A stretch of DNA of 63,771 bases from Rhynchobatus australiae (Eukaryota): positions 26,783,628 through 26,847,398 of the forward strand of contig JAUZTB010000063.1 of assembly GCA_034780895.1 (NCBI GenBank). Direction: 5' to 3'. The notes beneath the pieces are model-generated. The model did not search any database, was not told the origin of the DNA, and worked only from the letters and a program-made list of their open reading frames with translations. Below, in pieces: positions 608 through 63,215 of this stretch. Within the stretch, counting starts at the first letter, position 1. Every line of letters begins with the position of its first letter. The position numbers were made by a program, and so were the translations under genes.

Positions 608-769
608 CTAAAAGAAACAAGTAAAATGCTGATAAGTGATTTGTGGCAACTGGCATGCTATTTTGGAACTTGCTGTCTTTGAAAACATCTAAATCTGCCT
701 ACTGTAACCAAAAGTATGGGAGCAGGCACATTGGTAAGCACCACCTGTAGGTGCTCTCCAAGTCACACA

Positions 770-1000
770 TCTAGCTAGAAATACTCAGTGGGTCGGACCA
801 CATCAGTAGGAAGACAAACAAAGCTAATGTTTCAGGACAAAGATCCATCATCAGAACAGTTTCAGTTGGCAGCTCTGACAAAGAGACTTGAACCTGCAAC
901 ACTAGCTGTGTTTCTATTCCTACAGCTGCGGCCTGACCTGCTGAGTATTTCCAGCATTTTTTGTTTTAAGTTTCTACAACCTGCAGTTTTTATTTTAGAA
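770..1000. mobile_element. Short non-autonomous Penelope-like element made of two inverted terminal-repeat halves, each with a hammerhead-like motif
   Basis: Minus copy 858-823 reads CTGATGA...GAAA-ca-TT. Plus copy 871-906 is degenerate and followed by gacctgctgagtatttccagcattt. It interrupts an older LINE tail (about 715-770 and 1005-1200). Confidence 0.65.
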
Positions 1001-4089: not shown

Positions 4090-4430
4090 TGAACTAGCTT
4101 AGGAGTCAAAGACAGCGGTTAGAATGGAATGCTGCTCAGGGTCAGCCTTGCAGACTGAATAGAAGCATCTTCAAAGTAGTCAATATTTCAATGTTCCATT
4201 TCTCCAAAGAAAAGGAAACCACATCTTAAGTGCTGAATGGAGTACACAGGATTGGAAGAAGTGCAAGTGAATCACTGGTCCAGCTGGAAAGACTGTTNNN
4301 NNNNNNNNNNNNNNNNNNNNNNNNNNNNNNNNNNNNNNNNNNNNNNNNNNNNNNNNNNNNNNNNNNNNNNNNNNNNNNNNNNNNNNNNNNNNNNNNNGTT
4401 TCTAGATGGTGGGAAGGGATGAGGGCAGTG
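4090..4430 (-). mobile_element. Penelope-like GIY-YIG-region fragment
   Basis: Resembles the better-preserved copy at 54330-54700. Interrupted by an N gap. Confidence 0.4.
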
Positions 4431-4440
4431 GTTTTGTTAT

Positions 4441-4683
4441 TGGCTTTTGGGGAAGCTAATGGGTAAGCTGCCTATCATAGATGGAAAAAATTCTTTCCAA
4501 ACATCTTCATTGTTCATGCGGAATGCTGACACTACTGTCTTAAACAGATTGTCAGGATACAGGCATGGTTAGGAAGGCCAACATCAATTGCCCATTCCTA
4601 ATTACTCTCAAAGAGGTGATGGTAAGACACGGTTCAGAACTGCTGCAGACCTTCTGGTGAAGCTTGTACCATAATACTCTTGG
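4441..4683 (-). repeat. Arm B of the inverted duplication, with an extra ~43 nt at 4517-4559
   Basis: Reverse complement of 1077-1276. Confidence 0.9.
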
Positions 4684-9780: not shown

Positions 9781-10659
9781 TAATATAAAAATATGAGTAA
9801 TGTGACTCCTTTTAGCACTGATTCCATTAGCATTCTCATTCCTGGGAACACATCTTGAGTGCTAGTGAGATCCCAGGTCTAATATCAGGTATGTTTTTGA
9901 CCAGTTACTTTAAAAGAGTGAATGGTCAGAGACAACCTGATATTGGACCCTGGCCCTCATTAATATTGAGCTGAGAAACCCAATTTGACAACCACAGCAG
10001 CCTGCTGTCAAAGTGGANNNNNNNNNNATGGAAGATTTGGCTGCTGTAAACAAGGAACCCTGGTGAAACTGAACCAGTTAGAATAGTCCAGATATTCTGG
10101 CCATGTTTGCCAGAACGGAAGATTGCTGTCATCATTCGAGACTAAACATCTCTTTCCAGGGCATTGCTACAATTTCTCAATCCAGTACCCAAAGCCAAAC
10201 TATCTTCACCAATGACCTTCTCTCCATGGTTAGTTTAGAGATTTGGTAGAATGTGTTTGAATTATGAATCTGTATTGTTGTTCCATTTAAATTTGTCAAT
10301 GGAATAGCTTGTGTTGGAAAAACTGAAAGGAAGATGTTCAGTTTATTGTGATTGNNNNNNNNNNNNNNNNNNNNNNNNNNNNNNNNNNNNNNNNNNNNNN
10401 NNNNNNNNNNNNNNNNNNNNNNNNNNNNNNNNNNNNNNNNNNNNNNNNNNNNNNNNNNNNNNNNNNNNNNNNNNNNNNNNNNNNNNNNNNNNNNNNNNNN
10501 NNNNNNNNNNNNNNNNNNNNNNNNNNNNNNNNNNNNNNNNNNNNNNNNNNNNNNNNNNNNNNNNNNNNNNNNNNNNNNNNNNNNNNNNNNNNNNNNNNNN
10601 NNNNNNNNNNNNNNNNNNNNNNNNNNNNNNNNNNNNNNNNNNNNNNNNNTCTTTTCCAG

Positions 10660-13139: not shown

Positions 13140-15370
13140 ATTTACCCTATCTAAACTAGTCATGATCTAGTTTGCAATCAAATTTCCACCACACCATTAT
13201 CAAATCTCACCTCGCCCTTCTTTGCTCCAACAGAAACAGCCCATCTTCTTCAAAATTACACTATGGCCACCATTGTAGTAAATCTTTTCTGCACCTCTTC
13301 AGGACCTTCAGGACCATTCTTCTTAAAGTAGGGTACCAGTTTCAAGTTCAGTATTGTAATGGTAGCCTAACTAGGTTCAACATTGCTTCCTTGCTTTTGT
13401 GATCTGTACCTATATTTATGAATCTCAGGATCCCATATGCTTTACTTACCATGCTTATAAAGTGCCCTGCGCATGTACTTTGGCAGGAAGAATGAAAGCA
13501 GGATCATTGGGTCCTGGATGCATATCACCATTTTAAATTTCATCTGGCTTGTTTGCTTGTTCTGCCAGCCTATCTCTGTCTTCTAATACTGTGTTCCTCA
13601 CTGCTTTCTGCACTTCATGTCATCTGTAAATTTGGAAATTCCACCCTTTACACTCTGTGTAAGTCACTAATATATATGGGAAGAAACAAACTCTGATCCC
13701 AGTATCGACTCCTGGGAAACACCATTCTGTACCATCCTCCAGTTTGAAAAACAACTGATTAATACAACTCTCCGCTTTCTGCCTTGAAGCCAATTTCCTA
13801 TCCATGCTGCTCCCAATCCCTTAATTCCAAGTGTCTCAATTTTGCTAATAAGCCTTTTGTGTAGGACGTTATCAAAAACCTTCTGAAAATTAATGTAGAT
13901 GGCAATTATCACATTCCTCTCATCTGTTAACTGTTATACTCTCTGAAAATTTAGTCAGATTAGTCAAACGTGGATTTGTCATTAAAAAAAATCAATCCTA
14001 GCGCTCTTTTATTAGCTCAGACTTCAAATCCTTACTCATTTGTTCCCTGATTATCGTTTCTAATAACTTCCTCACATTTGCGATTAAACAGACCTATAGG
14101 CACATTCTTTCACCTCTTTTTTTGAACATGGTTGCCATTTTCCATCCCTCTGATAACTCTGCTGGGAAAGATAATTATGGCTTGTTCCTCTTCCACTCAC
14201 GCCTTCCTCAGCAACCTAGATGCATCGAACCTGACTAGGTGACCTGTTTACTGAAAACATTGCCAGCCAATGCTATTCCTCCCCCTCCTCAATTTTCACC
14301 CCATCCATTATCTCTATCACCTTCCTTCCACTGAGATTTTCGCAAAATTCTCTGCCTTAAGAACTCATTGAAAACTCTAACTATGCCTCTGCCTCTATGC
14401 ATAGATCACATTTTTTAAATCCCTAATCAGCCTCAAACCTCACCTCTCTTTCTACTCTTTTTTTTCCTCCTTACCTTTGACCCATCCCTTAGTGGATCTG
14501 CTCTTCCTCCTCCCCCCCCCCCCCGCACCTGCCTATCACTATCTCTTACCTGCATCTACCTATCACCACCTTGTGCCTACCCCACCTCCCCACTTTGGTC
14601 CACCTATCACTGCTCTGCTTTTCCCTCCTATATATTGGGCTTCCCCTTTTCCTTTCTTCAGTCCTGAGAAGGGTCCTGACCCAGAACGTTGACCACCTGC
14701 TTTTCTCCATGGATGCTGCATAGTTTGCTGAGTTTCTCCAGCATCATCGTGTTTTTCATCAAGCCTTTTCTTAATGCCCACTTGTATTGACTTGCCTATT
14801 GTAGACCTTTATTGATTCTTGTTTATGTTAACTTTAATTCTCTCTCTGCTTGTCCCAGTTTCTCTTTTCAGTTTCCACTCTCGGCTTACAATGTTCAGCC
14901 TGGATCTCACTGGAGTTATTCACCTGATCAAACACTTTTTTTAATCTGATATCTACTCGNNNNNNNNNNNNNNNNNNNNNNNNNNNNNNNNNNNNNNNNN
15001 NNNNNNNNNNNNNNNNNNNNNNNNNNNNNNNNNNNNNNNNNNNNNNNNNNNNNNNNNNNNNNNNNNNNNNNNNNNNNNNNNNNNNNNNNNNNNNNNNNNN
15101 NNNNNNNNNNNNNNNNNNNNNNNNNNNNNNNNNNNNNNNNNNNNNNNNNNNNNNNNNNNNNNNNNNNNNNNNNNNNNNNNNNNNNNNNNNNNNNNNNNNG
15201 ATCTGATGGTTGCTATTCCCTGAGTGTTTTTCCACTGATTCTTGGTCCATTTCACCCACCTCCTTTCCCGGAACCAGATCCAGCAATACTTTCTTCCTCA
15301 TTGGCATGAACCATGCTGATCAAGGAAGTTGTCTTGAACATACTTTAGATTTTCCTCCCTTCTTTACCTA
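13140..15370 (-). mobile_element. Decayed CR1 LINE (RT and endonuclease remnants), interrupted by a Penelope-like end and a gap
   Basis: ORF 13667-13912 gives INFQKVFDNVLHKRLISKI...WLQGRKRRV...NGVSQESILG (CR1 RT). ORF 14834-15307 gives LLDLV...GNSNH (APE C-terminus). Confidence 0.8.
14465..14760 (+). mobile_element. Penelope-like terminal repeat with a degenerate hammerhead at 14659-14694
   Basis: C-rich tract, then cagtc-CTGA-GA-agggtcctgaccc-AGAA-cgTTgacc, then gatgctgc...tgctgagtttctccagca. Confidence 0.7.
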
Positions 15371-15924: not shown

Positions 15925-18480
15925 CATTGTTGAACTTAAAGAACATTACAGCACAGTACAGGCCCTTCAGCCATTATGTTGTGCTGATCTTTTAACCTAC
16001 TTTGAGATCAATCTAACTGTTCCCTCCCACATACCCCTCCATTTTTCTATCATCCATGTGCCTATCTAAGTGTCTCTTAAATCTCCCTAATATATCTGCC
16101 TCTACCAGCACCCCGGCAGTGTGTTCCACACACCCACCACTCTCTATGTAAAAAAAAATTACCTCTGATATCACCCCAAACTTTCCTCCAATCACCTTAA
16201 AATTATGCCCGCTCGTGTTAGCCATTTCAGCCCTGGGAAAAAGTCTCTGGCTGTCCACTCAATCTATGCCCCTTATCATCTTGTACACCTCTATCAGGTC
16301 ACCTCTCATCCTTCGCTCCAAAGAGAAAAGCCCGAGTTCACTCAACCTATCCTCATAAGACATGCTCTCCAATCCAGGTAGTATCCTGGTAAATCTCCTC
16401 TACACCCTTTGTGAAGCTTCCACATCCTTCCTATAGTGAGGCACCCAGAACTGAACACAATATTCTAAGTGTGGTCGAACCAGGTTTTACCTGGTGGCTC
16501 TTGAACTCAATACCCTGACTATTGAAGTACAACTGCTTCTAAATTCCTGCCTAATAGCATTATAGTTCCCCCTCCCCTAGTTAAATACTTTCTCATACCG
16601 TCTGCTCGTATCCCTCTCCAAGGCAAGGGTGAAGGTCAGAGTTGTGGTCACTGTCTCCGAAATGCTCACCCACGAGAGATCGGACACCTGACCAGGTTCA
16701 TTGCCCAGTACCAGATTCAGAATGGCCTCTCCCCAAGTCGGCCTGTCTTCATATTGTGTCAGGAATCCTTCCTGGACAGACCTAACAAATTCCATCCCAT
16801 TGAAACCTTTTGCACTAAGGAGGAGCTAATCAATATTAGGGAAGTTGAAATCACCCATGACAACAGCCCTGTTTATTTTGCATCTTTCCAAAACCTGCCT
16901 CCTGATCTGTTCCTCAGTCTCTGTTGCTATTGCAGTGGGGGGGGGGGGTCTGTAGAATACTCCAAGTGGAGTAATTGTTCCCTTCCTGTTTCTGACCTCC
17001 ACCCACACTGACTCAGTAGACAATCCCTACAGGATATCTTCCCTTTCTGCAGATGTGACACTGTCCCTGATTAGCAACACCACTCCCCCACCTCTTTTAC
17101 CTCCCTCCCTGTCCCTTTTGAAACATCTAAACCACGGATAATCCAGCAGTCATTCCTGCCATTGTGACAGCCAAGTCTCTGTCATGGCAACAATATAGTC
17201 GTTCCATGTTCTAAGTTTGTCACCCTTGTTCCTGATACTTCTTGCATTAAAATAGACACATTTCAACCCATCCAACTGACTGCAATTATGCCCAATAAAA
17301 TGCCTATCCTTCCTCACAATCTCCCTTCACGCTGCATCAACCCATACACCAACTGCCCCATCCTCTGACCTATCACTCAGGTTCCCATCCCCCTGCCAAA
17401 CTAGTTTAAACTCTACACAATAGCTCTAGCAAACCTGCCTGCAAGGATATTGGTCCCCCTGCAGTTCAGGTGTAACACATCACTTTTGTACAGGTTGTAC
17501 CTTCCCCAGAAGAGATCCCAATGATTTACAAATCTGAAGCCCTGCCCCCTGCACCAATTTCTCAGCCACACATTCATCCACCAAATCAACTTGGTCTTAC
17601 CCTCACTGGCACGTAGCACAGGCAGCAATCCAGAGATTACTACCCTTGAGATCCTGCTTTTCAGCTTCCTACCTAGTTCCCAATATTCACTTTCCAGGAC
17701 CTCATCCTTTTTCCTACCAACATCGTTGGTACCAATGTGTACCATGACTTCTGACTGCTCCCCCTCCCCCTTTAGAACGCTGTGGACCCAATCTGAGATG
17801 TCCCTGACCCTGGCACCTGGGAGGCAACATTCCATCTGGGAGTCTCTTTCACGTCCACAGAATCTCTTGTCTGGTCCCCTAACTATAGAGTCCCCTATCA
17901 CTATTGCTCTCCATTTCTCCCCTCTTCTCAGCCATAGAGCCAGGCTCAGTGCCAGTGACCTGACCGCTGTGGCTTTCCCCTGGTAGGTCGTCGCCCCCCA
18001 ACAGTATCCAAAGTGGTANNNNNNNNNNNNNNNNNNNNNNNNNNNNNNNNNNNNNNNNNNNNNNNNNNNNNNNNNNNNNNNNNNNNNNNNNNNNNNNNNN
18101 NNNNNNNNNNNNNNNNNNNNNNNNNNNNNNNNNNNNNNNNNNNNNNNNNNNNNNNNNNNNNNNNNNNNNNNNNNNNNNNNNNNNNNNNNNNNNNNNNNNN
18201 NNNNNNNNNNNNNNNNNNNNNNNNNNNNNNNNNNNNNNNNNNNNNNNNNNNNNNNNNNNNNNNNNNNNNNNNNNNNNNNNNNNNNNNNNNNNNNNNNNNN
18301 NNNNNNNNNNNNNNNNNNNNNNNNNNNNNNNNNNNNNNNNNNNNNNNNNNNNNNNNNNNNNNNNNNNNNNNNNNNNNNNNNNNNNNNNNCCAGGTCACAG
18401 CCCTCCATATCTGGAAAAGAACTGGGTCCCGACACTCGCTTTATGTCTCCCACTTCTTGCTCCAAGTCACGGCCCTCGCT
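15925..18480 (-). mobile_element. CR1 (HER1-like) LINE with SGNH-esterase ORF1, APE endonuclease and 3' end, but RT domain absent
   Basis: ORF1 17413-18465: IVIGDSIVRG, CLPGARVRDI, VHIGTND, DVLHLN. Endonuclease: GVFYRPP, VVMGDFNFPNID. Abrupt junction near 16527 to the C-terminal KTLVRPHLEYCVQFW-type region. Confidence 0.88.
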
Positions 18481-18764: not shown

Positions 18765-19105
18765 TTATAACACAGAGGGAGGCTATTCCACCCATCGGGA
18801 GAAAGCCGGCTTCCAACAGAGCAATATCATTGGTCCTCTTTCCCCACTACTTATTTAACTGTATCCCTGCTGCAGTAAAATTAGTAGTAGGGGAATGATA
18901 CTAATGCCTATCAATTCGCCTTTTACACTAAGGGGTAATTTACAGAAGCCCATTAAACTGCCATCCCACCTCTGGAAGGAAAGTGGGGCACCCAGCAGAA
19001 ATCCATGTGCTCTCAGGGACAATGCACAAACCCCACAGACAGCACTCGAGATCAGGATTGAACTCAGGACCCTGGAGGTGCGAGACCTCAACACTAGCCA
19101 CTGTG
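18765..19105 (-). mobile_element. V-SINE (HE1-like) with CR1-type tail
   Basis: tRNA box-B-like gagttcaatcc on the minus strand (~19055-19065) plus V core. Confidence 0.7.
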
Positions 19106-21872: not shown

Positions 21873-22317
21873 GTAAGTAGTCTTGTATTCCACTTTTTGC
21901 CATTCTGTTCCTCGCCAATAGTCATGTATCTTGTACATTTTTTTGATTGATTTTCTTTACTGAGATTCCATCAATGAATTAGTTTCTGCCAACTCACAAA
22001 CCTGTCCGAATGTTAGACAGTTGAGAAGATAATTAAATTTTAATTAAAGCAATTAAAAAATACAACTTACTGACTTTAGATATTTTAAAATAATTACTTT
22101 ATTAAACAAAAGGTGAAATCTGAACATTAGTTCAGTGCTTCTCAACAATATGTGCTTTTCTAAAGTTAGTGATGGCCTAATCAAAGGCAAACAAATGACA
22201 CTAGCCAGCTGTCATGTTTACATTTACCATGTGACTTACGGTTGTTAGAGAGTCAAAGCAGTAGCTGGCCTCTTGAGGGGGTCTGGGATCTGTGAATGGA
22301 GCAAACAATTGTCTCGC

Positions 22318-22418
22318 AAAAAACAAGCTGCTGGAGGAACTCAGCAGGTCGGGCAGCATCTGTGGAGGCAAAGGGATAGTTGATGTTTTGGGTTGAAATC
22401 CTGCATCAGGACTGATTG
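22318..22418 (-). mobile_element. Penelope-like terminal repeat with CpG-decayed hammerhead at 22378-22414
   Basis: Minus strand: cagtc-CTGATGC-aggatttcaaccc-AAAA-caTCaact...gatgctgcccgacctgctgagttcctccagc. Confidence 0.7.
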
Positions 22419-22987
22419 TGAGAACAATTGTGTATCTCTAACAGNNNNNNNNNNNNNNNNNNNNNNNNNNNNNNNNNNNNNNNNNNNNNNNNNNNNNNNN
22501 NNNNNNNNNNNNNNNNNNNNNNNNNNNNNNNNAGACAAGATGAAATGTGATTGAAAAATATGAAACAAAGAAAAGAATATTAAAATTGAATCACGAACAA
22601 TAATTAGAACCAGAGGCATGATAAGTAATTGTTTAGTACCAGTGAGGTTGTTTGGAAGTAGTTAAGACATAATGTACTTAAGTGGAAAGTAATTTTGATG
22701 TGTTCAAGGAGTAAGTAGCACATCTTCGCACCTATGTGTATTTGAATATCAGGTCTCTCAACGAGACACCAATGTAATGAAGCATATTGTGAAACCAGGC
22801 CATTTGGACATTAATTTTCTGATTTACAATTGCTGCCAGATTTACATCCTAATATCAACGAGTACTGATAGAAATGCATAATGAGACTATTACAAACTGC
22901 AGAGCCAGGTTGCTCCAATGTGTGTTCTTGCATGCCTGGTATGTGAAAACATAATACTGACCTTAATATTGGATGCTTTTCTTTTAG

Positions 22988-26999: not shown

Positions 27000-27110
27000 A
27001 AACAAAAGCAAAAATTACTACAGATGCTGGAAATCTGAAAGTTAAAAACAGAAAATGCTAGAAGTACTCGGCAGTTCAGACAGCATCTGTGGAGTGAGGA
27101 ACAGAATGAA
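27000..27110 (-). mobile_element. Penelope-like terminal repeat fragment (hammerhead part missing)
   Basis: cagatgctggaaatctgaa...aaaacagaaaatgctagaagtactcggcag...cagcatctgtggag. Confidence 0.6.
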
Positions 27111-28117
27111 TGGCTCAGCACATGGGGCAAGATTTGGGATGTGCAAATAATGGAAAGAAGCCCATGAGTAGGATGAAGGAGCTCAGAGTGTCCGAGGGCA
27201 GGGACTGGGTCCACAACAGTGAGACTGGATCAAGTGGAATCATTGACATTAGTAAGGTAGGGTGCGGGAATACTATCTGCTGCTAGGGATGGTGAAAATT
27301 GGGCTCATGGTAAAATTAGAGGGAAGGGATCCAAGGTTTGTTATAGATAGTTAGTCTCGAGATTGGTGTGGGGAATTAGGGTGGTTATGGATATCGAAGG
27401 AAGGTCGGGTAAAGAGGTGAGGTTTATTGGAAGTGGTTGAAGAGGATGGCCAAGAGATCATGCTCTAGGAGGCGGTAAAAGGATAGGCCAAGACATCAGG
27501 ATAGAGGGTGGCACAATGCAAAGGCTGTGTAGAACTGGTATGGGTGGGGTACAGTGGTGAGGGTTTAGTTAGTGTTGGAGTTGGGGAGGAGCTGAGGATC
27601 ATACTGGATATGAAGTTGTTTGTAGACTAATGTTTAAGACTTACTGGAGAACCGACCCCTTTAACAAATGGCAAAGCAGATCTTACAAGCATTATGAAGG
27701 CCTACTTCTGCATGTGTGGCCAGATGCACTTGCAACAAAATCATGAAAAAGGCATCCACTTGCTTGCCTTTGGACACCAGTGTGCTTCTCTGAGCTCCTC
27801 TATATTTGTACATTAGTTACATTATGCATGTGACAGTTTCCAGGCCTAAATATTTCCAAATTGGGAAAATAATGGAAAATGAAGGGAAGTTTGAAGTTGG
27901 TTTCATGTAGCATATATATGAAGAGACAACTGGGTCAAGTTAATTGGATGGTACTCAAGTATAATCGTAAGGAGATTGGAAAACTACTGCAGAAACACTT
28001 CCTAATTGAACTTTTTAAACCAGTATTTTACTTCAATATTTATTTGTGCTATATTTTGAGATACCTGTGCATTAGAAAGTCTTAACATGCTGAACACAGT
28101 TCTTTTGATATTTTCAG

Positions 28118-31099: not shown

Positions 31100-34000
31100 T
31101 ATTTTCACACATTTAATTCAGCTGTAGCCTTTCCTCTCTCACCTCGCAGCTTACACACACTGTTAGCTATTTAGCCATTCATATCATCAAACAATAGTCA
31201 AAAACATATTTCCCCCTCCCTTGCAGGTAAAAGAGATACAGAACTGGAGAAGCTGCATGGGCTCAGCAATGGTCACACCACTTCCAGCACCCCCTCCCCA
31301 CCCAATCCCAGGAAGTAGTGCTCAGCATTATTAGAATGGTCTTTACCAAGGCTGACTGGCTGCTGAATTTCAAGCACAGGAGATGATACCTATAATTGTG
31401 AACCAAAGCCATAAGAAATTGTGGCATTCTCACATCAAATACATTTTTACATCCCATTATTCTTCGTGCCACGATTTCTATTTCTGCACAAGTTGCAGAT
31501 GGTATAAATGTGCTTTTATTACTTGCTACCACCTTTGCACTCATCTCATATTGTGCTTATGATTTTTTTCCCATTAAGAACAGTATACTGACCAAGCATT
31601 AGTAAAAGAACAAAGATAATTACATTAAAGACACTGTCATTGCTCAATTTAATGACCATATGCACCAGCTAAGATACTGGCAAGGTATAATTTAGAGGTT
31701 AGCTTTGAGGAGGTATTTGCACGTGATGAGATTTGTGCCATGAATTCCTTCAGGCAGGGCAAAGGGAAAGGAGAGCGATGATATCAGTTTCCACCAAGGC
31801 AAGGTTACATAAGAGTTCTGCTGCAATAGTATCAAACACTTTGAAAGAAAAGCGTACAGAAAAAGATAGATGTGTACAATGAAATGCCCAGTGAATTGGC
31901 AAGCCTGGCAGAAAAAACTTCATGCATTGTTAAGGAACATTGAGTCCAGTATCAACATCAACTATTTGCAGAACCTCGAAGCCATGCTGTCCAGCATGGA
32001 GGTGGTGACCAACTCCATTAGCACACATGTTGGACTAAGCATCATGCAACATTGCATCTCATCTTATAATGTAGTACAAATCAAGCCTCCCATTGCCTGG
32101 GTACCACAGTGTAAGTTCATATCTTGCCATGAAAACACAGATTGCTGCATTAAAGCTGTAAATATCAATGTGCAAATGGCTTGCAAGATATTATGGAATC
32201 CAGTAATCTGTCCTTCAAAGATTGTTGGAATTGCTGAGACACAATCCTGGGAGGTTGAACACAAATATGTTGTTCTTTCTTCATGTTAGCTGAGATGATA
32301 CAGTACAAAGCTATGCCTTTTAAGCCTAGTTTCTTGACGTCCTCCTCCAAGGTTGTTTGCAGTCTTCTCCACTAATGGCCAGCGGCCTTCTACTATCTTT
32401 ATTCTAGCCATAAGGCATCACTACCTGGGAACAATTCAACAGAGAAAGGCAGAAGACAAGGCTGCAAGCAAATGCACAAAGACAGTTAGTTTACTTTTCA
32501 ATGCAATATGCCATGCATTGAAACATGGAACAAATTGTGCAAAATCTGGCTCATTGCTTCCTATCCCTGCACTTATCTGGGTAGATGTGAAAGGCCAATC
32601 TAGTTGACCATCTGCACCCAGCAGCTGGGCAGCACCAAATGCCAAGTTGCTGAGGTTCAACCCCAGAATGCCTGACAAGAGGCAAAGTTTTTTTTTAATG
32701 TTTCTGATATTGACATTTAAAAATTGTTAAAATTTCTGCAAATAATTTTCTTTTAATTGTTAAATTCAGAAAAAAGTTAACAGGAATTGGCATTGTTTAC
32801 AGGATTGCCATCAGATGAGTGTTTCACTGACAACCCAGATAGAACAAAGCTGTTAGGATGTCTTCTTCCTCCTGTTCCTGCTCCACATGATCTTAAGATT
32901 GTGTAACATGCAGCAGACCTCGACAAATCTTGGCACACAATTTATTCAATCCTTCAGCGTTTTTGCAAGCAGCAGGATTGTTTCAACACAATAAACAGTT
33001 ATATTTTGTGAGGGCAATCCCTTGGTGTGCATATGCACATGCATCAATCTCATAAATCATCAGAAGCCACCCCTTATTCCACAGTTGTAGCCAATTGGTT
33101 GGTGGCTCATATATGTTGCTGCAAAATGAAGGGACGATGAAAGCTGCTGAAATACTGTGCATAATGTGTTAAGGAAGGTCATGCTTGGGACAGTAATCCC
33201 TATTTTTGTAGTGTATCCCAGGATACTACATGTGCTAAGTACATATTCAATAGCATCTAGCGCCATAGTAAGGCCGCAGTCTTTTCAAAATCGTGTGCAA
33301 TGCCGTCCACCTGCCTACTCGTAAGAGGAAATGAAATATGATCAGCTGTCTTTGAATAGAAAGCAGCAACAACACCCAGTACAGCACATTATGAGAATAC
33401 ACAGGTTTTTGCAGCTCCAGCCCTGAAGCAACTAATAAATAAATGTTCACTGAGCTCGAGAGCCATTGACAATGTGGCCCCACCCTCTCTCAAATTGCAG
33501 TTGTAGATTTTAGAAGATATTGCAAACTTCGTGTCATGGTGCCAGAACGACAACCCCACCATTAACATCAGCAAGACAAAAGAGTTGGTTATTGACCTAA
33601 GGAAGCTGGGGGTTGGGTGGTGAGGCGGGCGTGGTGGCTTACTTTCTTGGGCGTCTCAGAAGATTCAGCATGTCCATGAGGATTCTCTTGAACTTCCACA
33701 GCTGCACTATAGAAAGTATCCTGTCAGGTTGCATCTCAGCCTGGTATGGCAACTGCTCTGTTCTGGACAGATGAAACTTGCACAGAATGGTAAACACAGC
33801 CCATTCCATCAGACTCATTGAGTCATCACTTCCTTCTATCCAGTCCACCTTCACAGTCATTGCTTCAGGAAAGCTAACAGTATTAGCAAGGATGCCTGCC
33901 ACCATGGCCATTCCCTTTTCTCTCTTCTCCCTTCTGGGAGAAGATACAGGGGCTTGAAAGCCCAGACATCCAGACTTAAGAACAGTTTCTTCCCCACTGC

Positions 34001-34520
34001 TATCAGACTTCTGAACCAATCACCTCATTCACATTCCTTTCCCAGTGGTGCTGCCATGTTCTCGTACTCTTAATTCTACCTCTTTTGGTTATTCTGTTAT
34101 TGTTACTTCAGCATTTTTTGCGCTATTTCAGTTTTTGCACTACAACCTTTGCACCATTCTGCTGTTTTGCACTTATCACTGTATTTATTGCTGTATTTAT
34201 TATTACCATGCATACTTTTACTCTGTGAGCTTCATGCGAGCAAGGAATTTCATTGCATACTGGTGTATGTGACAATAAACTAATCTAAATCTAATGAGGA
34301 CATACTGCTGAAATGTAGGAAACTCATGGCTTGTTCCTTGAAGACCTACAGGTAGCAATGTTGCTCTCTGAGCAGGCTGGCCAGAGGTGCCATTCTCTCC
34401 CTCTGCCCCTCCCATTCCCATTCCCTTTCATTTCTCACAACTTATTCCACTCTCCCCAATCATGCTGTACCCCAAGGGGAACACCTACCAAATGATCCAT
34501 CCCTAGGAATATCTCAGTGG
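31100..34520. mobile_element. Decayed PIF/Harbinger transposon: transposase on minus (~32880-34500), probable Myb/SANT-type second gene on plus (~31200-32300)
   Basis: Minus-strand remnants in HARBI1-family order: VFKEQAMSFLHFS (~34310-34350), ADHISF (~33330), ALDAIEY (GAID-like, ~33250), IVLKQ..CL (~32980), VPRFVEVCCMLHN (32897-32938). The second gene is inferred from weak similarity only. Confidence 0.6.
33495..34292 (+). mobile_element. Rex1/Babar-type LINE, 5'-truncated, inserted in the Harbinger element
   Basis: NISKTKELVID, then YFLGRLRRF and TIESILSGCISAWYGNC. Ends tgacaataaac followed by a taatct-type repeat tail. Confidence 0.8.
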
Positions 34521-37810: not shown

Positions 37811-39714
37811 AAATATTTTTTTTACAGTAGAATCCTAATACGTATTGGTTAAGAAAATAATAGGATCAGGAATAGACCATACAGCACCTCTACTTGCTCC
37901 ACCATTCAATAAAGTCATGACTGATCCTGTGCCTGCTTAATTTTCTCACATAATTTCTGTCTCCTTTGATTGCTTTGTGATGAGAAATCTTTTGATCTCT
38001 GCCTCAAATACAATAAATATGCATCCACAATCCTCTGAGGTAAAAAAGACAAATAATATACAATTTGAGTAAAGATTTTTCTGCTCATCTTAATCCAAAG
38101 TGCCAGCCTCTCTACTATTAAATCCGTGTTAGAGGAAGTAGTCTCTTCGCATGCACTCTGTCAAGCAATCTCAGAATTTTGTGTGTCTCAATGAGATGAA
38201 CACTTTTGCTTCCTGTCTCCAGTGAATATAGGCTGATTTTGCTCATTCTTTATTCATTGGATAACCCCCTCCTCACAGGACTAATGGGAATGAATCCACA
38301 CTGCACTGACTTTTCAGGACAAAGAATCTTTGAAATGTATGGCACAGAAAGAGGCTATTTGGCGCACTATGTCCATGTGAGCCAAAAGTAAACTCAAGGT
38401 TAATTCCACTCACTGGCTCTCCAGATTCGGGGGAATTTAATGCTCTTTGGGAAAACAGATGCAATTGTGCAGGTTGTAACTCACAAAATTCCAGAAAATC
38501 TCAGCAACTCCTTTTCATTCTCCAACTTCCCACAGTACAATTTGTCTTCCTAATTGCATGCTAGTTTTGCAAGTTTACTTCCTGCATCTTCTGAAACTGC
38601 ACACCCAGATCCCCCTGTACACAAACATTTTAAACAGTGAGAAACTCCCAGTAAAAGTATTGCCTTTATAGCTTTACACCTAATGTCCTTCCTCCTATTT
38701 TCCCACATGACCAGCCTTCCATCTGATACTTTGCCCACTTGCCTAACCTGAATGTATTCCAATTACAGACACCTTCACGCATTCCTGTCTAGTGTTGTAT
38801 CATCAGCAGACTTGGATAGTTTGTTTCATTTTGGCTATTTATATCGCTGAGGGCACAGTCCTGATCTCTGTGACATCCCGGCTAGCAATCTGTCGACCTG
38901 TATAGGACCCATAAGCTATTATTGTTTCTCATCCTCCAGATAATCTTATTGAAAAAATGATTATCTAGAGAGGATTGACAAGGTAGCTGTTTGGAGGGTG
39001 TCATCCCCATGGGGAAATCTAGAAACTTCAGAATAAGAGAAAATTTAAATTGAAGAAAAAAAAATTGCCTCTGCTGTGAATCTTTAGAATAATTTACCCC
39101 AGAGAGCTCTTGTAGCTGGGCCATTGAATTTATTTACTGCCAAGACGAATAGATTTTTGGAACATGAGGAAAATCAAGTGCTATGGCGAGCAGGCAGGAA
39201 AATGGAGTTGAAACCAAAGTCAGATCTCCCATGGACTTACTGAAAGGCAGAGAAGGTTTGAAGGGCAAACTGGTCTGCTCCTGATCTCATTCCTCATCTT
39301 CAGTCCCCTATCTGTGCTAAAATGTTACTTGCAACCTCATGAGATCTTACTTAATGGAAACAACCTTTTGAGTGAGACCTTATCAATTGCCTTTTAAAAA
39401 TTAGTATCTGCTATGTTCCTTCACTGGTATTTTCCTGATAACTTGTCTGTAATTTACTATTTTTTTCTTCTCTTACTGAATAGTCTTGTTACATGTTTCT
39501 ACTCTCTGAAGCTCAGCAACATTTAGTGTTCTCTGTGGGGAAGATAAACACAATATCTGCCTGATGTCTGAGCCATTCGTTTCCCCATTATAATTTCTCC
39601 TGTCATTGTCTCTATTGGACCTGCACTTACTTTATCTATTAAATTTTTATAATTCTCTAACATTTTTAATTTCTTGCTGTTTTAGCCTTATTTATCTTAT
39701 CCAGCTGTCATTCT

Positions 39715-40197
39715 TGGTTCAGAAACAGAAAATGTTAAAGCAATCAGCAGAACAGACAGTATCAGTACGGCAAGAAGCAGAGTCAACATTTCAGGTCAAG
39801 GACCCTTCATCAGAACTTGAAAAGTCAAGTGAGTTTTAAGTTTCAGAGCAAGGGAAGGATGGAAAGAACAAAGGGAATGTCTGTGATAGAGTGCAGACTG
39901 AGGTTGGCTAGGTAACAATTACTTCAAACAAACAAGTTGGAGACAGAAAAGAGAAAGGAACAAATTGAAACAGAAAGGTACACCCATATCTCTGGAGAGA
40001 CAGACATTAAAAATAAAAGTAACTTCTCCATCACAAACATTCTCTCTGTTCCCTCCAGCCCTCTGCAACTGAACACATTTATCTTCTCAGTTCTCCGGTT
40101 TTGACTTCCTTTCTTTCCCATGAGGCTGTTTGACCTGCTGAATGCCTGCAGTGTTTTCTGTTTTGTGGAGGATTCCAGCATCTGCATTTTGCTTCAA
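39715..40197. mobile_element. Non-autonomous Penelope-like element with inverted ends
   Basis: Minus terminal copy 39715-39820 and plus terminal copy 40100-40197 (tttgacctgctgaatg...attccagcatctgca). Internal inverted similarity (39865-39890 versus 40030-40055). Confidence 0.65.
39781..39817 (-). ncRNA. Minimal type I hammerhead ribozyme motif (Penelope-associated), best-preserved core in the window
   Basis: Minus strand agtt-CTGATGA-a-gggtc(ctt)gacct-GAAA-tg-TT-gact. Catalytic boxes intact, 5-bp stem II, stem I agtt/gact. Stem III palindrome decayed from AACGTT to AATGTT. Confidence 0.6.
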
Positions 40198-40294: not shown

Positions 40295-40690
40295 TCAGTT
40301 AATAGGAGAGACTGAATAGGATGGATTTGTTTTCCCTGCAGCAAAGGAGGCTGAGAGGTGACTTAATGGAGGTATGTAAATTATGAGGGGTATAAATAGG
40401 GTAAATAATAAAAATCTTTTTCCCATGGTGGAAGTGTATAAGACAAGAGGGCATAGGTTCAGAGAGGATCTGAGGGGGAGTTTTTTTTTCCACACAGAAC
40501 ATGATTGGAGTTTGGAATGTGCTGCCTGAAGAAGTGGTGGAGGCAAATATGCTCATGACAAAGCATCTAGAGAAGTTCTTGAATTGACAAGGAATAGAAG
40601 ACTATGGATGTAATGCAGGTTAATGGGACAGGTACAACGACATGGTTGGGCAAATGGCCCTTTTCAATGCTGTATGTTTATTTGATTCTA
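40295..40690 (+). mobile_element. CR1 LINE 3' end
   Basis: RLNRMDLFSLQQRRLRGDLMEVCKL...FFHTEHDWSLEC, the decayed CR1 C-terminus and 3' UTR. Confidence 0.8.
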
Positions 40691-42029
40691 TGACCCTAAA
40701 CACACAGAGCACTTTTTATAGATAAGGTAAGATTTCCTTATTAGTCTCATGTACATTGGAACACACAGTGAAATGCATCTTTTGCGTAGAGTGTTCTGGG
40801 GGCAGCCGGTAAGTGTCGCCACGCTTGAAAATTGGTTATTTCCAAAGTGGAATATAATTGCAATGATTTCCAGGCGGAATATTACCACTGAAAATTCAGC
40901 TAGGTGCTACTTGTCATGATTTGCAGCTACACCGATGATGCAATTTTTGTTGAAGCTGTACTCATCCAGGGCAAGTGGAGAGTATTCCATCACACTCCCA
41001 ACTTGAGCCATGTAGGTGGCAGAGACCCTTTGAGGAATTAGGAGGTGAGATACATATAATTATTAATTGCACAACAGAATTCAAACAAATTGAACCAAAA
41101 TGAGGAATGTGTGAAATTTGAGTTGAAATTTGGATACCTTGTGTGATGTTGGAGGATTAAAAATGCCACCTGATGAGCACTCTTTTTTCTGTTATGATCA
41201 TACCTGGTGTTATGTCAGGAAGTCCTTTACACCTGTGCAGTTAGCACACACAGAGAATGCACAAAGCATCCACATCAGGATGGATGTTAGTCAGTGTGAA
41301 ATGTGGATTTGATGCCAGTGCAGATCTTCTGGGCAACAATGTTCCTGGCCATATCTTAATAACTTGCCACCTTTGAATACATGTTGGCAGCTGGAAGAAC
41401 CCTATTAATACTACTGTAAAGAGGAATCATCAACCACTTGTAAGTTAACTGCTAAATCATTTTTCTGGCATTTCTTATTCTACAAGAGGCCCTTTCCAGT
41501 GATGTTGCTAGTTGCAGAAATCTACAGGTAGCAGTGCCATAGGTGCTGCCTGGTTTAGTCCTCAACTTGTGGTTTGTGCACGTTGGTGGCCGTCAGCTTG
41601 GAAGTTTTGGTTGGCTTTGCGTAATTGGGACAATGAAAGAGAACATGTAGTGTGAATTCAGCTGCTGAAGTGGGAGTAGAGGAAAGAAGAATTTTTAGCA
41701 CAGGGTGTTCAGGGACCAATTCTTTAACCTCAGCAAGAAATAAAGAAACAGACTATACTTCAATAAGCACATCCTCACTAAAAACTGCCACCTTAAACTG
41801 GCACAGCTTCAACTTTGGCAGGGCAAGAACCCATTAGGCAATGGCTGTTATATATGCATTTGGCTCCTTCCATTTGGAAGCTGAACGTATCTGCAACACC
41901 CCTCACTGTGGGTAAAGAAGGTTACTGACTTTCAATTTGAGACAGCAATCACCTTTATTTGTTTACACTTCCCATGAGCCAGAGCTATGAACTGTACACA
42001 TTGCTTTTTGATGTTGCATGCCAGTACTG

Positions 42030-42905
42030 ACAGAATCAGAATCAGGTTTATTATCACTGACTTACATGTCATGAAATTTGTTTTGTGGCAGCAGTGCACT
42101 GTAAAGACATAAAATTACTATAAATTACAAAATAAATAAATAGTGCAAAAAAAAGAATAACAAAGTAGTGTTCATGGACAGTCCAGAAATCTGATGGTGG
42201 AGGGGAAGAAGCAGTTCCTAAGTCGTTTAGTGTGGGTTTTCAGGCTCCTCTATCTCCTGCCCTATGGTAGTAACAAGAAGAGGACATGTCCCAGATTGTG
42301 AAGGTCTTTACTGACGGATATTGCCTTCTTGAGGCACTGCCTCTTGAAGATGTCCTCGATGGTAGGGAGAGTTGTGCCTGTGATGGAGCTGGCTGAGTCG
42401 ACAACCCTCTGCAGCCTCTTGTGATCCTGTCCATTGGAGNNNNNNNNNNNNNNNNNNNNNNNNNNNNNNNNNNNNNNNNNNNNNNNNNNNNNNNNNNNNN
42501 NNNNNNNNNNNNNNNNNNNNNNNNNNNNNNNNNNNNNNNNNNNNNNNNNNNNNNNNNNNNNNNNNNNNNNNNNNNNNNNNNNNNNNNNNNNNNNNNNNNN
42601 NNNNNNNNNNNNNNNNNNNNNNNNNNNNNNNNNNNNNNNNNNNNNNNNNNNNNNNNNNNNNNNNNNNNNNNNNNNNNNNNNNNNNNNNNNNNNNNNNNNN
42701 NNNNNNNNNNNNNNNNNNNNNNNNNNNNNNNNNNNNNNNNNNNNNNNNNNNNNNNNNNNNNNACAACACCACTTAACCAGCTGACCTATCTCACTCCTGT
42801 ATGCCTCCTCATCACCATCTGAGGTTCCACTGACAATGGTGGTGTCATCGGCAAATTTATAGATGACATTTGAACTGTGCTTAGCCACACAGTCATGAGT
42901 TCAGA
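42030..42905 (-). mobile_element. Rex1/Babar-type LINE, 5'-truncated
   Basis: ORF 42262-42888 gives IYKFADDTTIV and QDHKRLQRVVDSASSITG. (gattct)n tail near 42032-42045. Confidence 0.85.
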
Positions 42906-48780: not shown

Positions 48781-48782
48781 AA

Positions 48783-49701
48783 CACACAAAATGCTGGAGG
48801 AACTCAGCTGGTCAGGCAGCATCTATGGAGGGAAATAAACAGTTGACATTCTGGGTCGAGACCCTTCATCAGGACAAGAAAGGAAGAAGGCAGAAGCCAG
48901 AATAAAAATGTAGGGGGAGGAGCACAAGCTGGTAGGTGATAGGTGAGTCCAGGTGAGGGGGTGGTAGGTGGGTGGGGACGGGGAATGAAAGGGAATGATG
49001 TGAGAAGCTGGGAGGTGACAGGTGGAAGAGGCAAAGGGCTGAAGAAGGAATCTGATAGCAGGGGACAGTAGTCCATAGAATAGAGGGAAGGAGGTGGGGA
49101 AAACAACTCCAGGTCACCAGTCCTCTCTGTTTTCCCTCCCCCTCTTTGTTTTCCCTCATTCCTGTGGCCCCCTCACCCCTTCACTTTCCCTTCCCCCACC
49201 CTCACGACCTCTCATTGCCTTCCTCTGGTTCCCCACCTCCTTCCCTCACCTGGATTCACCTATCACCCGGCAGCTTGCTCTCCTCTCCCTCCCCTCTTCC
49301 TTTCAAGTCCAGATAAGATTTCTTTATTAGTCCCATATACAGAGAAATGCATCTTTTGCATAGAGAGTTCTGGGGCAGCTCTCAAGTGTCGCCGTGCTTC
49401 CGCGCCAACATAGCATGGCCACAGCTCCTAACCTGTACGTGTTTGGAATGTGGGAGGAACCTGGAGCACCCAGAGGAAACCCATGCAGGCACAGGGACAA
49501 TGTACAAGCTCCTTCCAGATAGAGGCCAGAATTGAAACAGAGGTGCTGGCACTGTAATAGTGTTAAGCTAACCACTACACCACCATGCCACGAAATGTCA
49601 ACTGCTTATTTCCCTCCATTGATGCTGCCTGACCTGCTGAGTTCCTCCAGCATCTTGTGGGTGTTGCTCCAGATTCCGGCATCTGCAGAATCTCTTGTGT
49701 C
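48783..49701. mobile_element. Inverted pair of Penelope-like terminal repeats (minus 48783-49105, plus ~49110-49701), with a SINE inserted in the plus copy
   Basis: 48783-48845 is the reverse complement of ~49595-49665. G-rich tract mirrors C-rich tract. Hammerhead motif on minus at 48839-48876 (CTGATGA-a-gggtctcgaccc-AGAA-tgTC). Confidence 0.8.
49311..49590 (-). mobile_element. V-SINE with Rex-type tail; partial second copy at 40722-40826
   Basis: tRNA-like head tggcatggtggtgtagtggttagc, V core, and aataaagaaatcttatct tail on the minus strand. Confidence 0.8.
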
Positions 49702-54329: not shown

Positions 54330-54700
54330 GGGTTTATTTCAAGTCAGACATATTTAAGAGCACAGCTGTCAACCTCTGCTTCAGTTAGGAAGACAGTTTG
54401 GATCGCTGGTTGGTGGGAAGGGAAGAGGTGAAAGGACAGGTGTTGCGTCACCTGCAGTTGCAAGGGAAAGTGCCACACACTCAGCAGTGGTTGGTGGAAT
54501 GGAAGGGTGGACCAGGGAGTCACAAAGGGAGCAAATCCTTCAAAATGCTGAAAGAGGAGGGGAGGAGAGTATGTGTCAGGTGGTGGAATCTTGTTGGAGC
54601 TGATGGAAGTTGCGAAGGGGGATCTGTTGAATGTGGAGGTTGGTGGAATGGAAGGTAAGGACCAGGAGAGTTCTGTTCTTGCTTTGTCCATGAGTGTGGG
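54330..54700 (-). mobile_element. Penelope-like ORF fragment (linker and Cys-rich region upstream of GIY-YIG)
   Basis: KNRTLLVLTFHSTNLHIQQIPLRNFHQLQQD and GTFPCNCR..TCPF remnants. Confidence 0.7.
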
Positions 54701-56350: not shown

Positions 56351-59300
56351 GGCCAGTCCAGCACCACCAAGGTCCTGACTATGGGAATTATCAGTTTTAT
56401 TGTGTTCTGAAATCTGATGATATGAAGATCATAGTTACTCAGTGAAACATGCATAATTTGTTCAAACTCAGTCCCCAAAATCGGATCCATATTTTGCAAT
56501 CNNNNNNNNNNNNNNNNNNNNNNNNNNNNNNNNNNNNNNNNNNNNNNNNNNNNNNNNNNNNNNNNNNNNNNNNNNNNNNNNNNNNNNNNNNNNNNNNNNN
56601 NNNNNNNNNNNNNNNNNNNNNNNNNNNNNNNNNNNNNNNNNNNNNNNNNNNNNNNNNNNNNNNNNNNNNNNNNNNNNNNNNNNNNNNNNNNNNNNNNNNN
56701 NNNNNNNNNNNNNNNNNNNNNNNNNNNNNNNNNNNNNNNNNNNNNNNNNNNNNNNNNNNNNNNNNNNNNNNNNNNNNNNNNNNNNNNNNNNNNNNNNNNN
56801 NNNNNNNNNNNNNNNNNNNNNNNNNNNNNNNNNNNNNNNNNNNNNNNNNTGAATACCTAATGGATATATACAATGAGTTCCCAAATCCTCCTTTATTTTG
56901 AGGCAGATCTCTGTTATTGCTACTATAATATTTCCATGTAGTAATGTATGTGTGCAGCTGACTAACTTCAGACAGAAGAAAATCAAAAAAAGTGCAAACG
57001 CTGGAAATCTGAAATAAAAATTGCAACTGCTGAAAAAACGCAGCACCTGTGGAAGGAGAAGCAGTTAATGTTTTATGTCTGAGCCACTTTTTAAATACTA
57101 CCTGTAGTCACAATATGCATACCAACCCAGAGTAGAATGTACTCATCTCATCCCTGAACAAATCTTTCCTCTAGTGCATTGTTTCTATAATTCGTTATTT
57201 TATCCTGATGCCATCACCCTGATTGTCTTTCTCCATAAAATTTGTTCACAAGAAACAATGGGAGCATAGCTGATAGATTTTCACTGTCCTGCATGCACTG
57301 CCATGGTTTCAAGTTTGTTATAATGATATTTTATCTATTCAAAGCCAAATAGCCTGACTAATCCTTCCTGTCTCTATTGTATATGTACTGTACAGTTCAG
57401 CTCAAAACCAATAAATAATAGAATCAATGGACCAAATGTGCTGTAACAATTCTGTGATTCTAATTATGCAACAGTAATCATTCANNNNNNNNNNNNNNNN
57501 NNNNNNNNNNNNNNNNNNNNNNNNNNNNNNNNNNNNNNNNNNNNNNNNNNNNNNNNNNNNNNNNNNNNNNNNNNNNNNNNNNNNNNNNNNNNNNNNNNNN
57601 NNNNNNNNNNNNNNNNNNNNNNNNNNNNNNNNNNNNNNNNNNNNNNNNNNNNNNNNNNNNNNNNNNNNNNNNNNNNNNNNNNNNNNNNNNNNNNNNNNNN
57701 NNCCTTTTGTACATTTAACCTATCAGTTCAATTGACTTCTTACTGTATTAAAGGTTGTTTTTCAAGCCTAGTGGGAGTTACTCCACAGTTTAGATTTTGC
57801 ACAGATGCTACCACTACGTCTCAAAAGGCTGCAGTTCAAGGTCTAAACAAATGTCAAAAATATCTGGAGAATAAGCTTCCAGCTGTTCGTAATAATTTGA
57901 CACTAAGATACCCTACTAAGTGACTGCAGAGGATCTATCTGCTACACTGGTCTGCTCTGTTTTGGAAAAGCCCTGATTATTGCTGGAAGAATAATTATTT
58001 AATTGAGCTTTACAAATCCATCAGGGCCTTTACTTTGCCTTCAGAGCCCAGAATGACTGTAGGTGTCAAGACAGAAATGTATGACTAGCAAATGAAACAA
58101 GGAGTTTTTTAACTGGTTCAGTGTCTCTTCATTCACTATTAAGCACATACTAGCAGAATCCAATTAACGTCACATGAAATAATTTTTATTGGTTACTTTT
58201 CCCCTTCTCTGATTAATTTTTCTGCATGTTGACTCATCCTAATGAACCCTTTCCCCATTACCCCTGACCTGTTGTGCATGATGTATCTCTTCTTTATCAC
58301 ACTTTTAATTGGTTTGATGAATCTTTTAAAGATACATTCATTTAGTCTGAGTTTGCTGGTGTTGGCAGAATGTTTCTCCTTCCTGCTCTGTTTTCTATCT
58401 TTAATTGTGTTCCAATTCAATTCTACTGAAGAAGAGTTGAGCAAACTCTAGCTTAATTTATTTAACAGAAAAGATTTTGTCTAACTTCATACTGAACACA
58501 GAGGAATAGTCATTATGAACACCATTGAATGAAGCTTTCTTCTTCCAGCCCTGTTTGGAGAGTGGCCTTGACTCAGTGCAGTGTTTACAACCAAAAACTC
58601 CTTTGCAGTCATGGTTTTGGCCAACTGATCCTTTCGAAAAGTACAAATAAACATTGAGAAAAAAGAAATGGCAAAGCCCTAGTACTATTCAGTAGTTATT
58701 CAAACTGAATTGACATGCAGAACATAGTAAATACCAATACTAAACATAGTATAGATGAGTTGACATCTGTATGTACATGTCATGCTTTACTGAAATAGTT
58801 TGGTTTGAATGATGTCTCCCAGTTTCAATCTATTGTTTGAAAACAGCATGGAATGAATAGTATCAAATTCATTTGTCTTCCTTNNNNNNNNNNNNNNNNN
58901 NNNNNNNNNNNNNNNNNNNNNNNNNNNNNNNNNNNNNNNNNNNNNNNNNNNNNNNACAGAAATTAAATTTTAGCAGCTGTGGTTCATAATTTCTTGCAGA
59001 ATTGCAGAACTACTCCGTACATTACTGTGGGGTATACAGCTGCAGAGCTTTTGCTGAAGAAAAGGTTGAGAAAGTACTTGAGCACTGTTCAAATAAATTT
59101 AGCTTCTGGAGTGAATAGTAGTTGAGTCAAGGTTGTCACCATGAAACTAATCAGAAAGAATGCATTTTCAAGGAAAGAGAATGTGTTCACATTCTTAACC
59201 GATCTAGTAAGTCAAACTCACAGAAGTGGAAGATAGGAACCAAAGGAAAGGTTTGCAGAGCTAAGAGATAAGTGATTGAAGATGGTGGCAGACTCCAATG

Positions 59301-62099: not shown

Positions 62100-63215
62100 A
62101 TAACTCCAAGACCTGGGACTCAACACCTCCCTCTGAAACTGGATCCTTGACTTTCTGACCATCAGACCACAGTCAGTGAGGATAGGCAGCAACATCTCCA
62201 GCACGATTATTCTCAGCACTGGTGCCCCACAAGGCTGTGTCCTCAGCCCTCTACTCTACTCCCTATATACATATAACTACATGGCCAGATTCTGCTCTAA
62301 CTCCTTCACAAGTTTGCAGATAATGCCACCATAGTGGGCCATATCTCAAATAACAATGAGTCGGAGTACAGGAAGGAGAGAGAGAGAGCTTAGTGTCTTG
62401 GTGGCATGGCAACAGCTTTTCCCTCAATGTCAGCAAAACCAAAGAGCTGGTCATTGACTTCAGGAAAGGGGGCAGTGTACATGCACCTGTCTGCATCAAT
62501 GGTGCTGAAGTTGAGAGGGTTGAGCTCTTCAAGTTACTTGGAGTGAACGTCACCAACAGCCTGTCCTGATCCAACCACGTAGATGCCACAAGCTCACCAG
62601 TGCCTCTACTTCCTCAGGAGGCTAAAGAAATCTGGCATGTCCCCTTTNNNNNNNNNNNNNNNNNNNNNNNNNNNNNNNNNNAGAAAGCATCCTATCTGGA
62701 TGCATCATGGCTTGGTATGGCAACTGCTCTGCCCAGGACCTCAAGAAACTGCAGAGAACACAGTTGTGGACACAGCCCAGCACATCACGGAAACCAGCTT
62801 CCCCTCCATGGACTCTGTCTATACCTCTCGCTGCCTTGGTGAAGCAGCCAACATAATCAAAGACCACACCCACCCAGGTCAATCTTCTCACCTCTCCCAT
62901 CAGCAGAAGATACAGGAGCCTGAAGGCACACACCACCAGGCTCAAGGACAGTTTCTATCCCACTGTGATAAGACTATTGAACAGTTTCCTTATACAATGA
63001 GATGGACTCTTGACCTCAGAATCTACCTTGTTATAACCTTGCACCTTATTATCTACCTGCAATCCAGTTCCCTGTAGCTGTGACACTTTATTCTGTATTC
63101 TATTATCGATTTTACCCTGCACTACCTTAATGCACTGTGTAATGAATTGATCTGTACGAACGGTATGCATGACAAGTTTTTCACTCTACCTCGGTACAAG
63201 TGACAATAATACAAA
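62100..63215 (+). mobile_element. Rex1/Babar-type LINE, 5'-truncated, with RT
   Basis: [56 protein letters not shown] and AHQCLYFLRRLKK. Ends gtgacaataat. Confidence 0.9.

Follow-up and report, generated by a model that had tools for sequence, protein, structure and literature searches.

A motif resembling a hammerhead ribozyme recurs at seven places in the window, as we call the whole 63,771-nt stretch of Rhynchobatus australiae DNA analysed here, which raises the questions of what kind of element carries it, whether that element forms a ribozyme-bounded family of its own, and whether any copy still works as a ribozyme. The motif runs through stem I, CUGAUGA, one extra base, a stem II of 4-5 bp, GAAA, a palindromic CG, UC or UU, and stem I again, and the family has the core of the minimal hammerheads (CUGANGA and GAAA-NN-UH, helices I and II, palindromic 15.2-16.2). 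It reads as a type I hammerhead of the minimal sort, located in the pLTR (end repeat) of a Penelope-like element (PLE) of Neptune type. The suggestion in the preliminary description of a minimal type I hammerhead at a PLE end, with a palindromic and near-absent stem III, is borne out by a genome pattern search, in which a single subfamily had 339 letter-perfect copies. An Rfam scan of the window gave no match to a hammerhead family even at E 10, and the family was therefore identified by homology instead.

Sequence related to the motif is present at all seven places first reported, far above chance, but most of these copies are broken as hammerheads. The catalytic core is intact in only two (39781-39817 and 823-858), and none of the seven has every hammerhead feature. 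At 39781-39817 all four pairs of stem II (with a G-U closing pair) and all four of stem I are present, the CG of the stem III palindrome has decayed to TG, and cleavage is predicted after the UU downstream of GAAA-UG. At 823-858 only two of the four stem II pairs form. The CUGANGA or the GAAA box is broken in each of 871-906, 14659-14694 (where CUGANGA lacks one nucleotide and GAAA is broken too), 22378-22414 and 48839-48876. The copy described as split across 49305-49604 is indeed interrupted by an insertion, but its core and stem II are missing and not merely split: CUGAUGA and stem II (~20 nt) are absent where a 288-nt SINE-like element sits. Three window copies lie beyond the original list (27009-27118 minus, 40105-40186 plus and 56992-57085 minus). 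The features are as follows, E1, E2 and E3 being the three inverted pairs.

745..859, minus strand: E1 left copy, arm-only PLE end from the hammerhead's 5' edge; hammerhead 823-858, stem II broken
867..988, plus strand: E1 right copy, head-to-head with the left; hammerhead 871-906, core broken
4191..4292, minus strand: weak remnant of the PLE GIY-YIG region (tblastn E 0.009 and 0.064)
14440..14761, plus strand: solo 5'-truncated copy with ~215 nt of 3' UTR; hammerhead 14659-14694
22316..22415, minus strand: arm-only copy from the hammerhead's 5' edge, CUGAUGC-A subfamily, GAAA broken
27009..27118, minus strand: arm and tail without hammerhead core, additional to the seven (HMM)
39712..39970, minus strand: E2 left copy, 5'-truncated PLE end (~150 nt of 3' UTR, hammerhead, arm, short 3' end); HMM match 39824-39712, inner boundary approximate
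39781..39817, minus strand: putative minimal type I hammerhead of the PLE pLTR; intact core, stem I 4 bp, stem II 4 bp
39985..40186, plus strand: E2 right copy, inverted; 3' UTR remnant, arm, partial tail; HMM match 40105-40186, inner boundary approximate
48782..49101, minus strand: E3 left copy, 320 nt of PLE 3' end with the short 3' terminus; hammerhead 48839-48876, GAAA broken
49104..49304, plus strand: E3 right copy, part 1, from about the ORF stop codon through a 3' UTR with internal deletion to the 5' strand of stem I (alignment to locus L027)
49305..49592, minus strand: SINE-like insertion, presumably tRNA-type, at the site of the missing hammerhead core and stem II (A/B-box-like head, by eye)
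49593..49701, plus strand: E3 right copy, part 2; GAAA, 3' strand of stem I, arm, 35-38-nt tail
54361..54698, minus strand: PLE reading-frame remnant, end of the RT region and CxxC linker (tblastn with protein P0001, 57% over 63 aa, E 4e-13)
56992..57085, minus strand: decayed arm, additional to the seven (HMM)

The upstream part of the E2 left copy matches another genomic locus (L150) over 153 nt, while the right copy has its hammerhead core deleted near 40090-40105 and forms a fold-back with the left. In a second organism one contig covers the whole of E2 and differs from it by 32 substitutions, so the E2 insertion is old and shared. The left arm of E3 and the 3' end of L061, a near-full PLE copy, are 83.5% identical across 340 nt. 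The arm-only copy at 22316..22415 has a likely 11-bp target-site duplication (22304-22314 and 22423-22433, 10 of 11 letters matching); none that convinced was found for E1, E2, E3 or the SINE. The SINE-like repeat recurs at 2039-2130, 18973-19029 and 40725-40826 and in four other loci (L005, L012, L015 and L016), and it is very high-copy, the summed contig depth exceeding a million at 40727-40857. Other repeats in the window include an inverted pair of ~250 nt at 77% identity (1074-1276 and 4441-4686), unrelated to the PLE arm; a near-perfect hairpin of ~95 nt with weak miRNA-model matches (9865-9960), possibly a small DNA-transposon remnant; and further dispersed repeats at 33918-34016, 42181-42261 and 62885-62982, and at 16204-16312 and 40348-40455.

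The link to a PLE comes from what lies beside the arms elsewhere in the genome. Among 30 loci picked solely by a GIY-YIG fragment, a same-strand arm lies downstream in 16 (the seed locus being one) and six have an inverted arm upstream; five of the 30 are contigs too short to tell. The end of the reading frame lies upstream of many arms. When loci were picked by the DNA of the ORF's N-terminal part, 9/30 had an arm or tail immediately ahead of the ORF, in the same orientation and running into it; across loci, a pLTR is thus found at both ORF ends. Longer loci carry RT motifs, a C-x4-C-x2-C linker and GIY-YIG (translations of L061 and L063). A 281-aa ORF piece matches 10 proteins, all but one with an RT family, the best from Chiloscyllium (61%), and the element's best protein homologues come from Chiloscyllium and Hypanus. 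Pfam gave no matches on five raw ORF fragments, and the domains were therefore named through these homologues, which match RVT_1 and GIY-YIG; P0004 and P0007 match GIY-YIG as well and align across L061 and L063. A PLE-type RT followed by a C-terminal GIY-YIG, linked to the repeat, is accordingly present on broken copies and in homologues. The element's layout, assembled from overlapping broken copies among which neither an intact ORF nor a complete copy was seen, is hammerhead-arm-tail, ORF (N-terminal part, RT, CxxC linker, GIY-YIG), ~350 nt of 3' UTR, and hammerhead-arm-(tail). It has two fixed 3' ends ~36 nt apart, the tail being present in 32 and absent in 30 of the 62 readable perfect-motif copies (72 in all, 10 masked). 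An optional tail of 30-40 bp is a PLE signature in the available portions of the literature (PMC11167929; PMC8557442). The CX2-5CxxC linker between RT and EN belongs to Neptune, shared with Nematis, in the part of PMC8557442 available to us, and on this linker Neptune is the likely clade. Some PLE loci are rearranged: L063, a long one, contains inverted ORF pieces and an arm joined straight into the RT region, so that inversion occurs deep inside the ORF too, and five others (L115, L118, L120, L124 and L126) have ORF N-terminal DNA joined directly to the 3' arm at breakpoints that all differ, likely through template jumps.

Abundance and decay were assessed with an HMM of the arm, built from genomic copies and run on the window and on 80 stretches of 10 kb taken at even intervals from the 2.23-Gb genome, with 668,504 unmasked bases between them. 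It found 10 arms in the window, 137 in the sample and none in the same sequences read backwards, a density of about one arm per 4.9 kb or, scaled up roughly, ~450,000 genome-wide. Column conservation is 0.865 in the core and 0.872 in the block downstream, and among the 52 gap-free arms of the 137 the core is intact in nine and every feature is present in one. PLE copies decay like their flanks, and the core of the sampled arms bears no sign of selection. The stem pairing noted earlier among copies is real and shows compensatory changes from one subfamily to another, but these changes are no stronger than non-structural subfamily markers. Three stem pairs switch between subfamilies (C-G 22 and T-A 25; G-C 22 and A-T 22; C-G 42 and T-A 15), other column pairs covary more, and the covariation score on 20 hand-picked rows was reached by 30 of 500 shuffles, which is borderline. 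The switches fit with selection in active ancestors, but each represents one inherited change.

Two subfamilies depart from the usual core. In one, represented in the window by 22378-22414 (minus) and elsewhere by L307-L312, position 9 is a C (CUGAUGC-A); it accounts for 25 of the 91 sampled arms covering that position and for 63 otherwise perfect copies genome-wide, having been amplified with a non-consensus core. Changing A9 of a hammerhead is harmful. The subfamily of 39781-39817 (minus; also L313-L316) has U at 11.1 in 26/34 copies and A or G at 10.1, where G10.1-C11.1 is usual, and a U-A pair closes its stem I.

It could be argued that the copy at 39781-39817 still works as a ribozyme, or has been adopted by the host, and cuts one of the host's transcripts, given that its core and both stems are intact and that the two stems fold in isolation (computed probability of stem I, 0.66-0.92). 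Within the left copy or the whole of E2, however, the predicted probability of stem I is 0.00. Its stem III palindrome is decayed, there is no partner close by on the same strand, and the other arm of E2 is without a core. An intact core also persists in the nine sampled arms mentioned above without sign of selection, and monomers of minimal hammerheads failed to cleave in the portion of PMC4209133 available to us. We consider a live ribozyme at this position extremely unlikely; the copy is most likely inert. In active master elements the ribozyme was probably functional, as a dimer or protein-assisted.

The preliminary description saw in E1, E2 and E3 three ORF-less elements with inverted termini, belonging to a non-autonomous, retrozyme-like family bounded by ribozymes. 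A family of that kind, separate from the PLE, would consist of short ORF-less, hammerhead-bounded units that are excised, circularised and copied by the PLE enzyme. The ends are inverted, as described: all three are head-to-head pairs of 5'-truncated copies. They are ORF-less only through truncation, the arms of E3 being a PLE 3' end and a copy that begins at about the ORF stop codon. A hammerhead-like motif occurs in both arms of E1 only, and the hammerheads, rather than bounding the element, sit within the arms near the pair's centre, with 60-100 nt between them and the outer ends. Because the arms of the window pairs are on opposite strands, they cannot form the same-strand tandem dimer used by retrozymes.

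In the genome sample, neighbouring arms within 100 nt of each other are head-to-head in 19 cases, tail-to-tail in none and direct in one; within 1 kb the figures are 25, 7 and 12. All 19 short head-to-head pairs have different junctions, with overlaps of 1-14 nt in nine, and the inverted elements are thus one-off rearrangements and not a multi-copy family, an outcome that the preliminary description itself had named as refuting its proposal. Each short pair having its own truncation points, the palindromes were made per insertion and not copied as a unit. No fixed monomer copied as a unit was found, the junctions and the spacings of direct pairs all differing, and the window, with its inverted pairs and solo copies, has no same-strand tandem repeats with a complete hammerhead per unit. 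Internally deleted copies have differing breakpoints, and a family of internally deleted 500-650-nt tandem units was rejected for that reason. Nor do 5' ends show an excess at the cleavage site (16 at +33 versus 17 at +37, counted from the first base of stem I), where the retrozyme-like proposal would put them; they lie ~30 nt upstream. On the other side, arm-only copies are abundant, target-site duplications of 11-13 nt were seen by eye at 5/14 non-inverted loci, the 12 same-strand pairs of the sample have arms 97-970 nt apart, and non-LTR retrozymes derived from PLE pLTRs, also in one chondrichthyan, are reported in the available portion of 10.64898/2026.07.22.740005. Metazoan non-LTR retrozymes, as described in the accessible text of PMC7229834 and 10.64898/2026.07.22.740005, are non-coding, carry a type I hammerhead and are linked to PLE pLTRs, like the elements here, whereas they form same-strand tandem repeats of a fixed monomer with circular RNA and the window elements are inverted, differ in length and in most cases lack an intact core. 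We judge a retrozyme-like family very unlikely overall, and for the three elements of the window it is already largely refuted; they are truncated, variable-length pieces of an autonomous-type PLE.

What remains, with high probability, is that the motif is the minimal hammerhead of a PLE end repeat, likely Neptune, and that the window copies are decayed 5'-truncated insertions, often in head-to-head pairs likely built anew at each insertion. Published work on PLEs would supply most of the steps: the RT-endonuclease would nick the target and prime reverse transcription at either of two internal sites that lie downstream of the hammerhead, and microhomology would serve to join on a fold-back or another copy in the opposite orientation. 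The shortest copies, we infer from the counts given below, would be run-off cDNAs of uncleaved RNA starting at the hammerhead's first base. Points against this explanation are the 12 same-strand neighbours within 1 kb in the sample and one perfect tandem pair 406 nt apart; short tandem templates may exist. That pair, at locus L237 (contig C64, positions 3329602 and 3330008), consists of two perfect same-strand hammerheads, the stretch after the first being masked, and is the best natural dimer candidate.

Hammerheads in PLE ends and inverted stumps are an already published kind of feature. An inverted 5'-truncated copy beside the pLTR is a PLE pattern in the available portions of PMC8557442 and PMC3846280, and PMC4209133, likewise in part, describes opposite-strand pairs of minimal hammerheads 100-700 bp apart tied to truncated PLEs. 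Like the element here, the EN+ PLEs of the Neptune clade described there (PMC8557442; PMC3846280) have a single ORF with RT and then a C-terminal GIY-YIG, a CX2-5CxxC linker, a pLTR with hammerhead, heavy 5' truncation, an adjacent inverted truncated copy, an optional tail of 30-40 bp, and target-site duplications or microhomology junctions. The ray genome differs in its very many arm-sized stumps (~one per 4.9 kb) and in a sharp 5' edge at the hammerhead's first base, a feature not found in the accessible portions of PMC8557442 and PMC3846280. The metazoan minimal hammerheads of PMC4209133, as far as its available text goes, share with ours the type I form, the lack of a real helix III, the palindromic 15.2-16.2, the extra base between 9 and 10.1 and a helix I of 4-5 bp, and are mostly solitary or in opposite-strand pairs tied to truncated PLEs. 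In contrast to them, helix II here has 4-5 and not 7-8 bp, G-C is replaced by A/G10.1-U11.1 in one subfamily, and position 9 is a C in another. The same source reports such ribozymes in fish Xena, Poseidon and Neptune, with no cartilaginous fish named in the portion of its main text available, and our literature search, which left most subscription papers outside its reach, returned nothing relevant on hammerhead ribozymes in shark Penelope elements.

The sharp 5' edge emerges when the first base of stem I is numbered +1 and exact patterns with a non-templated purine flank are counted. Copies begin at about +1 in 136/5154 cases, compared with 6/4704 at -4 and 16/5982 at the cleavage site, +33; raw counts without denominators are 71 at +3, 61 at +6 and 17 at +37. 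The valid upstream control is a single position (-4): a control at about -20 gave 107 matches that were mostly one-letter mutants of the element's own flank and is confounded, and an all-against-all upstream-extension test was confounded by inverted partners and is excluded from the counts. Of the nine copies with a 5' pLTR, three start no more than a few bases away from +1. The +1 position lies within an initiator-like word, and 8/20 arms have a TATA-like word at -32 to -25, compared with at most three in other bins. Such a concentration of 5' ends on the opening base of the hammerhead suggests that uncleaved RNA is copied by run-off from the RNA start. We tentatively propose, at somewhat less than even confidence, that the PLE mRNA starts at that base from a TATA-plus-initiator promoter, that RT, priming within the 5' pLTR some 95-130 nt further downstream, copies as far as the capped 5' end of the uncleaved RNA and runs off there, and that the resulting strong-stop-like cDNA goes directly into the genome, singly or in head-to-head pairs. 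The base preceding +1 is C in 52, G in 29, A in 14 and T in 5 of the 100 matches listed of the 136 (hand count; G versus A, p = 6e-4). A reverse-transcribed cap as the source of this G is unproven, the G in L298 and L304 coming from a host duplication.

The edge at +1 could also owe nothing to a transcription start, and come from joining chemistry, with the cDNA end folding back or annealing through the stem I complement, or from a 3' splice acceptor; this is a distinct possibility, albeit one we doubt. At 16 of 30 inspected +1 loci an inverted arm lies directly upstream, and four loci join exactly through the 5-nt stem I complement; these four junctions could reflect fold-back priming, or else an arm beginning at the cleavage site that the +33 test would fail to detect. 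Several host-flanked copies have 1-4 nt of microhomology at AGTC, and self-priming has been inferred for head-to-head palindromes in the available part of PMC3846280. As for splicing, several subfamilies have a pyrimidine tract and YAG ahead of the motif, giving a site that resembles a splice acceptor, and the intron end of Drosophila virilis Penelope abuts helix I in the portion of PMC4209133 at hand. Against both versions, the other 14 of the 30 loci have no inverted arm directly upstream and share no upstream exon. The ends retain AG, unlike spliced RNA, a spliced junction from the ORF end to the hammerhead was found in 0 copies with one guessed junction pattern, and branch-point words show no peak, whereas the TATA-like word does.

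The start-site proposal can be set beside PAc, the Poseidon element of Anolis carolinensis, for which the available text of PMC11167929 describes two internal RT start sites that define the tail, as here. In that system cleavage is unnecessary for insertion, uncleaved RNA is the main template, and 5' truncation of the template shortens the product (PMC11167929, in part). PAc differs in clade and in having its start codon within the hammerhead, the likely start codon here lying, by eye, ~45 nt after the tail. Our literature search, with most subscription papers outside it, found no account of run-off or strong-stop cDNA from a PLE pLTR.

For annotation, these results mean that hammerhead-descriptor matches in such genomes are mostly dead and that the short repeats are pieces of a PLE and not a new ribozyme-bounded element. 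For the role of the PLE hammerhead, the 5'-end counts agree with the uncleaved template seen for PAc in vitro and name one base as the candidate start site. If the proposal of a start at that base is true, the PLE start site is recorded across the genome in hundreds of thousands of stumps, hammerhead cleavage does not make the template ends, and the C9 subfamily would fit a ribozyme that is dispensable for transposition.
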